From Thermodesulfovibrionales bacterium (lineage in GTDB: Bacteria > Nitrospirota > Thermodesulfovibrionia > Thermodesulfovibrionales > SM23-35): a stretch of 54,713 bases of DNA. Positions 27,701-30,700 of the stretch are shown here, in pieces; the stretch's first letter is position 1, and every line of letters starts with the position of its first letter. Where the stretch lies: NCBI GenBank assembly GCA_049302065.1, contig JBAQLU010000248.1, positions 1-54,713 of the forward strand. Direction: 5' to 3'. Made by a program: the position numbers.

Positions 27701-30700
27701 TGCCCACATGGACAGCAGCATCACAATATGGGATGTAGAGAAACAGAAAGAGGTGCATAACTTTGCTGTGCCGAACTCATCTACGTGGTCAGTCCGGTTC
27801 AGCCCTGACAGCAGGATTTTTGCTACTGCCAACCAGGACGCCCTGATCCATCTCTGGGATACTGAAACCGCACGCGCAGTTACTGTCCTCAAAGGCCATA
27901 CCGCATCCCCGAGAAGCATCGCTTTCAGCCCTGATTCAAAGGCAATCGCTTCCGGAGGTGAGGACAAGAATATTATTATCTGGAGATGAAGGGCAGAATT
28001 ATTAGTTGCTGCTTTAAAAAGCATTATCTATATTTTTTCAACCTTAAAGGCAGGGCATGCGGCTAAGGGGAATCAATAGCGCCTGTACGTTCAGAGAATG
28101 GCTTCCATAACAGAGAGGCTATGCATATCAGGAAAAATGTGGCGCCAAACAACTCAACAGTCTCTTCTATGGCCTGTCGCAAATCTATATCTAAAAAAGC
28201 AGTCTCTCGAAGGATATCATCAAATACAAAACCTGTGGCTGAGCCAATGAATGATAGAAGAAGGAAACCTGCTGCAGCATCGCCACTGCGAATCAGCCAC
28301 AGAATCGCTTTTCGCATAACAACCAGGGGCCAGATAATAATTCCTCCGATAGTCAGGAAGAAGGCGAACCAAAAGAGCCTGAGAAGGATGCTCACCTCAG
28401 AGGAGAGAAACCAGATAGTCTTATAACGAACGCCGAACTGTCCTAGGTATTTGGGATTAAGCAGAACCTGGGCATCCAGTTCCCTTGCGGCCGCAAGAAC
28501 GCAAATCAGGCAGGCCCAGCAAAACACCAAACCGTCAGCCCGATTATTTTGGCGCGACAAAGCCTTGAAGCATATCAGTATAGACACAATCCAGCACCCA
28601 AAACTCAACCATTCAATTACACCGTCTTCAGCATGCAATCTTGTTGGGTTCGGGCTGATCATATAAGCGATACATAATGGTATCAGCACAAAGGCGATAA
28701 CTAGACCGGCAATCCTTAAATATCCAAATGGTTGCTCGAATGTGTTATGCACCCAATGCATGATGCGCATTTTCATTTGCGTTTTTTAGCATCCTCCAGA
28801 AGATAAGCACGGATTCTTTACAACTCCTTGAACACCTTAGCAAGGCTTTCGCCTCCAACATGGATCTTAAACTGATTGAAATACCCGAAGGGCGTACACA
28901 TTACGGTATACCCTGCATTCTGAAGCCTTTCAGTTGTCAGTTTTATCATCTCCTCCGAGAACTCGGGAGATGCCTTGCTCGAAGAGAGATGGTTGAATGA
29001 ATGGATGACGACATTCTTTGTTCCAAACTTGCCCGCAAGCCATTTGATGTTCTTTGCCAGTTTGTCGAGCAGGCCCTTGCCTTTTCCCTCATCCTCTTTT
29101 TCTGCATGGAAAAAGACTACTATGGTATTTTCCATTGATTCTTCCCTATCAGCATCCGGAGCCTCCGGAAGGCTTTTAGAAGCAGTCTTAAACCACCATG
29201 TATGTGCGAAGAAAAGTAAAAGTTTCAAAATCTATTTTTCCCCTCTTGGGAGGGGTGCAGGGGTGGGTTTCCCATTTCTCCTGACCTACTCCCCGATCAT
29301 CATAACTACCCCTTCAATATTTTCCTTTACATCTTCATCAGTAAATCGCAAGAATCTGATTCCCGAAGCTTCCAACCTTTTCTGTCTTTTAATATCTCGA
29401 TCAATCTTGTAATTATGAGTATCTCCATCTATTTCTATGGCAAGCATCAACTCATTGCAGAAGAAATCAACAATATAATTATCTACAGGTTTTTGACGGT
29501 CAAAATCATAACCAAGCATTTGTTTGCCTTTAAGGTACTGCCATAATAATACCTCTGGAAGCGTACTGTTTTTTCTTAATTGTCTTGCCAGTTCTTTTAA
29601 ATTCGGGTTATAAGAGATGATCTGCTTGCGATTCATTATCTGCTGCTCTTTGCCTCCTGATACCCACCCCTACACCCCTCCCAAGAGGGGACTTAGAAGA
29701 ATCATTCATATACCTTTCCAAGAGAGAGCTTAGAAAAAATGGCGTTTACTTTATGCATTTCCAATTTTCATCCTTTTAACCGCATTCGCCACCTTAGCCA
29801 CTTTAACCATCTCCTTTACATCATGAACACGGATGATATCAGCTCCATTAATGATAGAGATAGCAATTGCTGCAGCAGTGCCTTCAAGCCTCTCTCCTGC
29901 AGGGACATCACCGAGTATCTTACCGATAAATGCCTTTCTTGACAGGCCGACCAGGACAGGTTTTTCGAGCAGGGTGAAGTTATGAAGGTTATGAATAATC
30001 TCAAGGTTATGTTCAAATGTCTTTCCAAAACCTATGCCAGGGTCAATAATTATCATGTCCTCTGCAATCCCCGATTCTTTTGCTGACCTGATGCTGTCTC
30101 TGAGATAATCCATTATCTCCGGTATCAAGGCCTCGTATACAGGATTTTTCTGCATGTCTTTTGGCGTTCCTTTTATATGCATTATGACAACAGGAACTTT
30201 ATATGCTGAAACAACCTTTGGCATCTCAGGGTCAAATCTCAGCCCGCTGATATCATTTACCATTGCTGCACCGGCATCAAGCGCCCTCTTTGCTACCTCT
30301 GATTTGTATGTATCTATGGATATCGGGGTATTAATCTCTTTAGTGAGCGCCTCAATAACAGGAAGCGTGCGCCTCAGTTCTTCTTCGATAGCTAATGGTT
30401 GTGAGCCCGGCCTTGTTGATTCTCCTCCGATATCAATAATATCAGCGCCGTCTTCCGACATCTGGATTGCCCTTTTAATCGCAGTTGATTTATCAAAATA
30501 CTGACCGCCATCAGAAAAGGAATCCGGAGTCACATTCAGGATTCCCATAATGTACGTTTTTTGTGAGAAGTCGAGACAGTAATTGCTCCAGACAAGTTTC
30601 ATGGTTTATTTTATTATATTTTGCTCAGAAAAACCCTGTCACCCTAACCAATTCCCTAATTGAAGAGAAGGAACTCCCCTCTTGAGAGGGGTGCAGGGGT

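Follow-up and report, generated by a model that had tools for sequence, protein, structure and literature searches.

BoxC-type repeats with a predicted triplex fold framing DUF559 nuclease genes: a widespread, new variant of the repeat–gene–repeat design

DUF559 nuclease genes and the BoxC-type hairpin repeats that frame them are a real, widespread and new variant of the repeat–gene–repeat design. The example studied here is a unit of 450 bp, consisting of a DUF559 gene and two inward-facing repeats, in a Thermodesulfovibrionales contig of 54,713 nucleotides (the window, meaning the whole stretch of DNA that was analysed). As the survey's finding had it, all four stand-alone DUF559 genes of this genome are bracketed; on reading, each has a hairpin with a G-rich tail facing inward on both sides. 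The DUF559 family is likely the missing partner of the BoxC-type repeat. The pairing joins two orphans: repeats with no known enzyme, and a widespread but uncharacterised family of nucleases to which E. coli YcjD and the protein of structure 3hrl belong.

The cassette between folP and thrED

The cassette lies between a folP-like gene and thrED, an archaeal-type editing domain present as a stand-alone gene and coupled to folP in eight relatives (Table 1). The arms that bracket the ORF are the longest among 40 inverted pairs in the 2 kb around it, and the sequence of the upstream type C repeat obeys the intrastrand-triplex code described below.

Table 1. Features of the cassette, its surroundings and the gene-less repeats of the window
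Feature	Position	Strand	Remarks
DUF559 / YcjD-like nuclease ORF, predicted	29289..29636	-	116 aa here; PF04480 105.3 bits, cut-off 20.6
Inverted arms bracketing the DUF559 ORF	29239-29271 and 29659-29691		33 nt each, 94% complementary
Upstream repeat, type C	29663..29690	-	hairpin 29675-29690, 4-nt spacer, G-rich tail 29663-29670 toward gene
Downstream repeat, type C	29240..29267	+	hairpin 29240-29255, 4-nt spacer, G-rich tail 29260-29267 toward gene
Stop TAG, private to source genome	29286..29288	-	Trp in homologues at 95–97% identity, which have 134 aa
Remainder of 134-aa frame	29232..29285	-	crosses downstream repeat; stop at 29232-29234
AGGAGG, possible ribosome-binding site	29653..29658	-	between tail and start codon
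Decayed additional hairpin copy	29713..29728	-	37 nt outside upstream repeat; direct repeat
folP-like pterin-binding enzyme	29751..30602	-	host gene upstream of cassette
Stand-alone threonyl-tRNA synthetase editing domain (thrED)	28818..29228	-	host gene downstream of cassette
Type C repeat without gene	30676..30703	+	upstream of folP
Type B repeat without gene	8363..8392	+	
Type A left and right doublet	54614..54695	.	tails outward; MITE-like family III flanks; contig end

In seven of the eight relatives that have folP and thrED adjacent, the two genes are abutted (overlapping or 2 nt apart) and the junction carries no repeat. The eighth, G005, has 48 nt between the genes and one decayed hairpin. 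The DUF559 unit is an insertion into this junction. The relatives G003 (four matches), G012 and G018 have their type C cassettes elsewhere. No target duplication is evident on reading the type C cassettes, and at the folP–thrED site the relatives with an empty junction are too distant to judge. A joint skipping 29227-29767 in sequencing runs X4 and X12 was considered as an excision product and rejected, its short side being 25–28 letters long with nine other letters between; it is probably another organism's empty junction. The low cover of the gene in an RNA run, for which contigs alone were used, carries no information. A search of plasmid DNA with the 471-bp unit gave no match. A single narrow scan of viral contigs with one DUF559 protein gave 13 pattern matches, none confirmed, which is not evidence of absence from phages. 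Rfam returned nothing at E 1 for positions 28500-31500, and a promoter scan found 5 sites where 4.5 were expected.

The protein of the window ends at a stop after residue 116 and has Pro27. Homologues at 95–97% identity have tryptophan and serine at these positions and reach 134 aa, as do near-identical strains in three studies, and contigs of sequencing runs X2, X3 and X4 carry another letter at position 29287. The window allele, shortened by 18 residues, may be decaying. Many DUF559 homologues likewise end near residue 116.

Repeat class, variants and dispersal

Judged by sequence, the cassette repeats are of the BoxC/PIT/TM intrastrand-triplex class. They have a pyrimidine arm, a purine arm and a third strand that follows the rules of purine-motif triads, in which the tail mirrors the purine arm (G over G-C, A or T over A-T). 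For the 144 of 164 cassette ends that have a pure pyrimidine/purine stem, the fit of the tail to this code is 0.96, compared with 0.82 (maximum 0.84) for tails shuffled among ends; with 42 distinct arms the values are 0.95 and 0.81. Of 305 tail positions that face an A of the stem, 290 are A or T, the mirror fit is better than that of a direct repeat by 86 to 6 (33 ties), and 183 of 197 genome copies fit the code perfectly. Loop sequences vary between loci, with the code kept. Because stems vary widely between clades, the match of tail and stem is one of co-variation and not of identity, and this co-variation supports a predicted purine-motif intrastrand triplex. Such a triplex requires a single strand. 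Folding of the cassette flanks, which models the hairpin only, recovers the hairpin with weak z-scores (-0.6 to -1.9), and stability alone is therefore not a marker of the repeat. Watson–Crick pairing of the tail with the 5' arm was ruled out, since the mirror fit beats the direct one. A G-quadruplex as the common structure was also rejected: types A and C could adopt it, but type B contains no more than two G runs, and the substitution of T for A in the tails appears to follow triplex rules.

The four paralogues carry three variants of the repeat. Type A (contigs C158 and C88) has the stem CCCTCYCCC, type B (C241) has TTT/AAA in the stem, and type C (the window) has a short stem. Type A matches the E. 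coli consensus (left end of the C158 cassette), of which type C is a shorter variant. The survey had assigned CCCTCTCCC-type repeats to all four genes, and this has to be corrected: only those on C158 and C88 are of that type (2/4), and the window repeats lack CCCTCTCCC and belong to the short-stem type, with 13 copies compared with 71. The earlier figure of about 70 copies stands for the pattern CCCTCYCCC-N-GGGRGAGGG (71; control 0), but the repeat class as a whole is larger. A generic detector, which requires a G-rich tail, found 223 copies compared with 2 in the reversed genome and 2 and 2 in shuffles. These comprise 149 of type A, 64 of type B, 5 of type C and 5 unclassified; the dedicated pattern is the one that yields 13 copies of type C. 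The right repeat of the C88 cassette has an insertion in its loop and is missed by the detector. On C130, C227 and C88, other small palindromes are inserted into repeat loops or spacers. Each of the 45 type A doublets joins one left-type and one right-type end, the arrangement of the C158 cassette, and the doublets descend from few founders. Among the relatives, G003 and G018 have the highest numbers of type C repeats, and both carry type C cassettes.

Within the genome, 115 of the 149 type A copies lie no more than 130 nt from the ends of three other element families. These MITE-like families (IS200-like ends in one; terminal inverted repeats in two, 123–215 bp) carry the doublets along with other cargo and coincide with many contig breaks. 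One has ends matching those that surround a Y1 transposase remnant on C16, the two with terminal inverted repeats also occur without a BoxC-type repeat, and one 186-bp element is cleanly absent in the relative G001. We infer that much of the type A amplification in this genome is probably the work of conventional transposases. As type A copies are mostly in MITE-like elements, their number in this genome says little about DUF559. Outside the searched MITE ends lie 61 of 64 type B and 5 of 5 type C copies. Envelopes of another kind enclose 4 of 57 cassettes in relatives, their inverted ends starting in the same way as those of an ISL3 element found in G055; two of the four show an apparent 7–8-bp target duplication. 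The searched envelopes were found neither at the window cassette nor on both sides of any of 66 GTDB loci. ISL3-like inverted ends around cassettes were noted at L009, L011, L091, L100 and L277, and at L271 an ORF start resembling GIY-YIG follows that same end.

Repeats of the form tail–hairpin–tail lie in frame inside long ORFs in 13 of 17 cases. Pfam families are present in 14 of 15 scanned ORFs with such an insert, which include MnmA, WaaA, LpxK, CobT, HisF, DapF, HypF, PrmC and 4-alpha-glucanotransferase. The insert is read as a Pro-rich and then Gly-rich peptide (C72, C97, C99, C103, C158, C179, C194, C227, C234 and C236; loci L198-L204 and L219-L225). Single repeats lie inside RtcA, RlmN, YbeY, polyprenyl synthase and methylases. 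Six in-gene inserts are comparable in G001, where five are absent and one (lpxK) is shared, with length differences that are all multiples of three; in this comparison 3 of 14 repeat clusters lack a two-sided orthologue and the C241 site differs in gene content. At the same in-gene positions, dapF (L210) and waaA (L214) of G001 have runs of a heptamer repeat, and two unrelated repeat families therefore use the same permissive sites. Whole cassettes are also fused in frame inside longer ORFs with at least 60 codons on each side (4/137), two of them with tails outward on both sides. By eye, the host ORFs (L015, L022, L148, L150) are a type I specificity subunit, a methylase, a tRNA deaminase and a methionine synthase. 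Deletion between the hairpins of a fused cassette would leave exactly the tail–hairpin–tail footprint.

The nuclease and its association with the repeat

The DUF559 protein is a single domain of 116–134 aa without a separate DNA-binding domain. A profile search of the source genome finds the four stand-alone genes and one weak fused match; on C139 (2650-2770) there is an 18-codon DUF559 remnant. The predicted model (pLDDT 89.9) folds like 3hrl (Z 14.6), I-Bth0305I (3r3p, Z 10.9) and Vsr (1cw0, Z 8.8, rmsd 2.0, 92 aligned). The earlier naming of 3hrl as the solved homologue is right, as it is the sole solved sequence homologue of the single window protein. Residues E28, D57, E68, D70, H74 and D81 (window numbering) are invariant. 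The catalytic E, D, N/D, H and D of EDxHD type, aligned to 3r3p, are unchanged in 46/46 alignment rows, and the active-site residues align with D196, N208, H213 (one off) and D222 of I-Bth0305I. Values of dN/dS are 0.05–0.25 in 12 of 14 pairs, two pairs being saturated, which indicates that the protein is under purifying selection.

Comparison of repeat ends and proteins suggests that repeat type follows protein clade rather than host. For 54 of 82 left ends, the right end of the same locus is placed within the top tenth, and at 30 of 35 loci the ends are closer to those of the nearest protein in another genome than to those of any paralogue in the same genome. The Mantel correlation of ends with protein is -0.46 (rho) for 45 relatives' loci, with no signal among 34 GTDB loci (rho -0.01), and 39 of 76 inner branches of the protein tree are open. 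Ends matching the protein tree could arise because of physical linkage alone. The gene itself is almost never in a genome without repeats. At least three pattern matches are present in 29/30 relatives with a strong DUF559 match compared with 15/30 without the gene, and in the genus of Pseudomonas chaetocerotis (centre genome excluded) at least ten copies are present in 10/10 genomes with the gene and in 7/50 without; sliding G runs inflate the type B counts, kin are not independent in these counts, and Fisher P values are overstated. Repeats without the gene are found in 15 of 44 repeat-bearing relatives and in 7 of 17 repeat-rich Pseudomonas genomes, with up to 170 copies. G042, assembled as one contig with 16 type A copies, has no DUF559 match even at E 1. 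These 16 repeats (L180-L195) are part of a mosaic element bounded by inverted ends of its own. G099 and G110 are further genomes without the gene.

The flank survey covered 152 loci, 151 with the core and 137 with both 170-nt flanks. The motif stands on at least one side of 126/137 loci, compared with 35/973 control windows at least 600 nt away, and faces inward on both sides at 82/137. A separate count with the motif at 138 of 138 loci was left out as circular, the motif having served to anchor those loci. By source, it is present at 61/61 loci of this genome and its relatives, 5/6 named records of a plasmid collection and 60/70 GTDB loci from many phyla, the last a biased sample drawn from the best 79 of 588 matches to one clade, found with the active-site pattern. 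On reading, it also stands beside DUF559 genes of E. coli, Neisseria, Synechocystis, Deinococcus and Sinorhizobium. The orientation is not always inverted, being outward or one-sided in E. coli, Deinococcus and some Pseudomonas. In the source genome, inward repeats on both sides occur at 1 of 2581 scored ORFs, itself a DUF559 (the other paralogues were missed by the ORF-start rule), and at 0/13 scorable Y1 transposase matches. They occur at 0/8 GIY-YIG matches, in agreement with the near-absence noted by the survey. Among 149 neighbour ORFs of 75 loci (92 with any Pfam family) there is no conserved partner gene, no Y1 transposase and no C5 methyltransferase; the window neighbours are folP and thrED. 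The 149 include one integrase, one Tn5-type transposase and about ten restriction-modification proteins. The G tails adjoin the start codon of the DUF559 genes.

In E. coli, of which strain K-12 has 23 TMECO sites, BoxC-type copies follow ycjD but do not precede it, and a different palindrome lies upstream. This near-perfect 45-nt palindrome lies directly upstream of the gene (approximately L035 1447-1493 and L208 548-594), stands in the place of the left repeat, and has last bases that resemble the tail. The order sapF–ycjD–fabI is found in 3346/5426 E. coli genomes, ycjD being fixed at one locus there. According to a published study, the eefRABCD locus is replaced by ycjD (PMC12817139). One eef-bearing strain has, on reading, no intact ycjD before fabI. 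Among the 24 chromosome rows listed, the 15 that have ycjD show a median of 13 repeat places per genome and the 9 that lack it a median of 5, a comparison confounded by phylogroup.

Interpretation and comparison with known systems

In our best reading, the cassette is a selfish unit moved by host repair and hitch-hiking. We lean, with reserve, towards DUF559 as the cognate single-strand, structure-specific nickase of its own repeat, similar to Ssn. When single-stranded, the G-rich strand would fold into the predicted hairpin-plus-third-strand triplex, which the protein would bind and nick. A nick at a dispersed repeat could then lead to recombination with a cassette-flanking repeat via host repair, carriage inside IS-derived MITEs would offer a further route of spread, and gene loss between two hairpins would produce doublets, lone hairpins and in-frame tail–hairpin–tail footprints. 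Enzymes with the Vsr/PD-(D/E)XK fold hydrolyse DNA and lack the HUH or tyrosine chemistry by which strands are transferred. As such a fold cannot join DNA, movement would need host repair or an IS. The survey's description of DUF559 as a cognate nuclease candidate is strengthened by the flanking across phyla, by repeat type tracking protein clade, by the gene-implies-repeat co-occurrence in two independent groups, and by purifying selection on an intact predicted Vsr/EDxHD active site. Its term 'REPtron-like' goes too far: there is no HUH transposase, the repeat is of the BoxC/triplex class and not REP, many genomes rich in repeats have no such gene, and MITE-like elements with ends of their own hold most of the type A copies here. 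The parallel it drew with Ssn fits more closely than that with RAYT.

A true REPtron analogue, in which DUF559 itself excises and inserts repeats and doublets and is needed to keep them, seems unlikely. It would suit a gene between inverted repeats, dispersed heterotypic doublets, type B and C copies outside the searched MITE ends (61/64 and 5/5) and missing from orthologous G001 sites in 5/6 in-gene cases, and the abundance of type C repeats in G003 and G018 with their type C cassettes. However, the hydrolytic fold lacks strand-transfer chemistry, some genomes are rich in repeats without the gene, and type A amplification takes place inside other elements. Alternatively, the repeats may exist for their own reasons and DUF559, perhaps a dimer like I-Bth0305I, may be a parasite that cuts duplex doublets and enters by gene conversion, the repeats serving as homology arms. 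The absence of a separate DNA-binding domain in 116–134 aa and the seven empty junctions without a repeat make this improbable, and variable loops with a conserved triplex code are more in keeping with a folded single strand than with a duplex target. In its favour, the closest homologue that has been characterised is the catalytic domain of a homing endonuclease, the gene occurs almost only where repeats exist and repeats often lack the gene, gene-less left and right doublets resemble empty alleles, and G005 has a decayed hairpin at the folP–thrED site.

The linkage could also be passive, with repeats that provide a ribosome-binding site, RNA ends or a recombination hot spot, a unit carried as IS cargo, and a nuclease acting on something else in repair or defence. 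G tails just before the start codon, ISL3-like and IS200-like envelopes, the restriction-modification proteins (about 10/149 neighbour ORFs) and the fixation of ycjD at one E. coli locus (3346/5426 genomes) are all compatible with this. We nevertheless give it little credence, as clade-specific variants still obey the triplex code at both ends, the window cassette and the GTDB loci (0/66 on both sides) are without the searched envelopes, and no C5 methyltransferase neighbour is present as for Vsr. The preferred nickase reading has a broader form, in which DUF559/YcjD proteins recognise an intrastrand triplex and the transposase-free cassette is the source of both the BoxC/PIT/TM repeats and the Pro/Gly-rich inserts; this we regard as tentative and rather doubtful. 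Natural cognate protein–repeat pairs, with proteins of 120 residues, exist for comparison of specificity.

REPtrons depend on RAYT, an HUH Y1 transposase, and their repeats bear a GTAG/CGTC foot. The DUF559 cassette is similar in having a gene between inverted palindromes and gene-less doublets across the genome, but it has no HUH Y1 transposase, its repeats persist without the gene, and no such foot was seen on reading the 223 listed copies. Vsr genes have a C5 cytosine methyltransferase gene adjacent, unlike the 75 DUF559 loci whose neighbours were scanned. Rickettsia palindromic elements are palindromic repeats in frame inside proteins. The repeats here are likewise read in frame as a short peptide in housekeeping proteins, but the inserts are much shorter (about 13–16 codons, Pro-rich then Gly-rich) and have a candidate parent cassette. 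DUF559 shares its predicted fold and active-site constellation with Vsr and with the EDxHD homing endonuclease I-Bth0305I (Taylor et al. 2011, PMC3239194). Unlike EDxHD homing endonucleases, it is intergenic, without an N-terminal NUMOD/HTH and without an intron or intein host.

The BoxC/PIT/TMECO intrastrand-triplex repeats were described by Holder et al. (2015, PMC4666352). In that study BoxC repeats, known in E. coli since the 1990s, are tied to local genome variability, with no known enzyme or origin, no mobility function found near the motifs, copies in intergenic positions only and the cause of the variability left unclear. The cassette repeats have the same order of pyrimidine arm, loop, purine arm and mirror third strand, and doublets always consist of two different types (5/5 in Holder et al., 45/45 here). 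The BoxC sequence is also the G4–hairpin switch of Kaplan et al. (2016, PMC5100583), whose exact 21-nt HPG1 sequence is contained in the left end of the C158 cassette. Unlike in Holder et al., a nuclease gene is framed by the repeats here, three variants coexist, and many copies lie in frame inside genes. In mainly open-access literature without supplements, no paper linking DUF559 or ycjD to BoxC/PIT/TM repeats was found.

The closest likeness is to Ssn-NTS/SRM (Chenal et al. 2025, PMC11893778), where a small single-domain gene is likewise flanked by its own hairpin repeats, with dispersed copies and homologue-specific variants. Ssn, however, is a GIY-YIG protein (cd10448), whereas the protein here is DUF559/Vsr-like by Pfam and predicted fold, and the window repeats are of the predicted triplex type, not plain hairpins, and on reading do not fit the SRM consensus of that study. 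Site-specific single-strand cleavage is described for Ssn; the DUF559 nuclease is predicted from sequence and fold. If the pairing proves true, it would possibly supply a triplex-specific nuclease for use as a probe, and it would add a third fold to the repeat–gene–repeat design, after HUH (RAYT) and GIY-YIG (Ssn).
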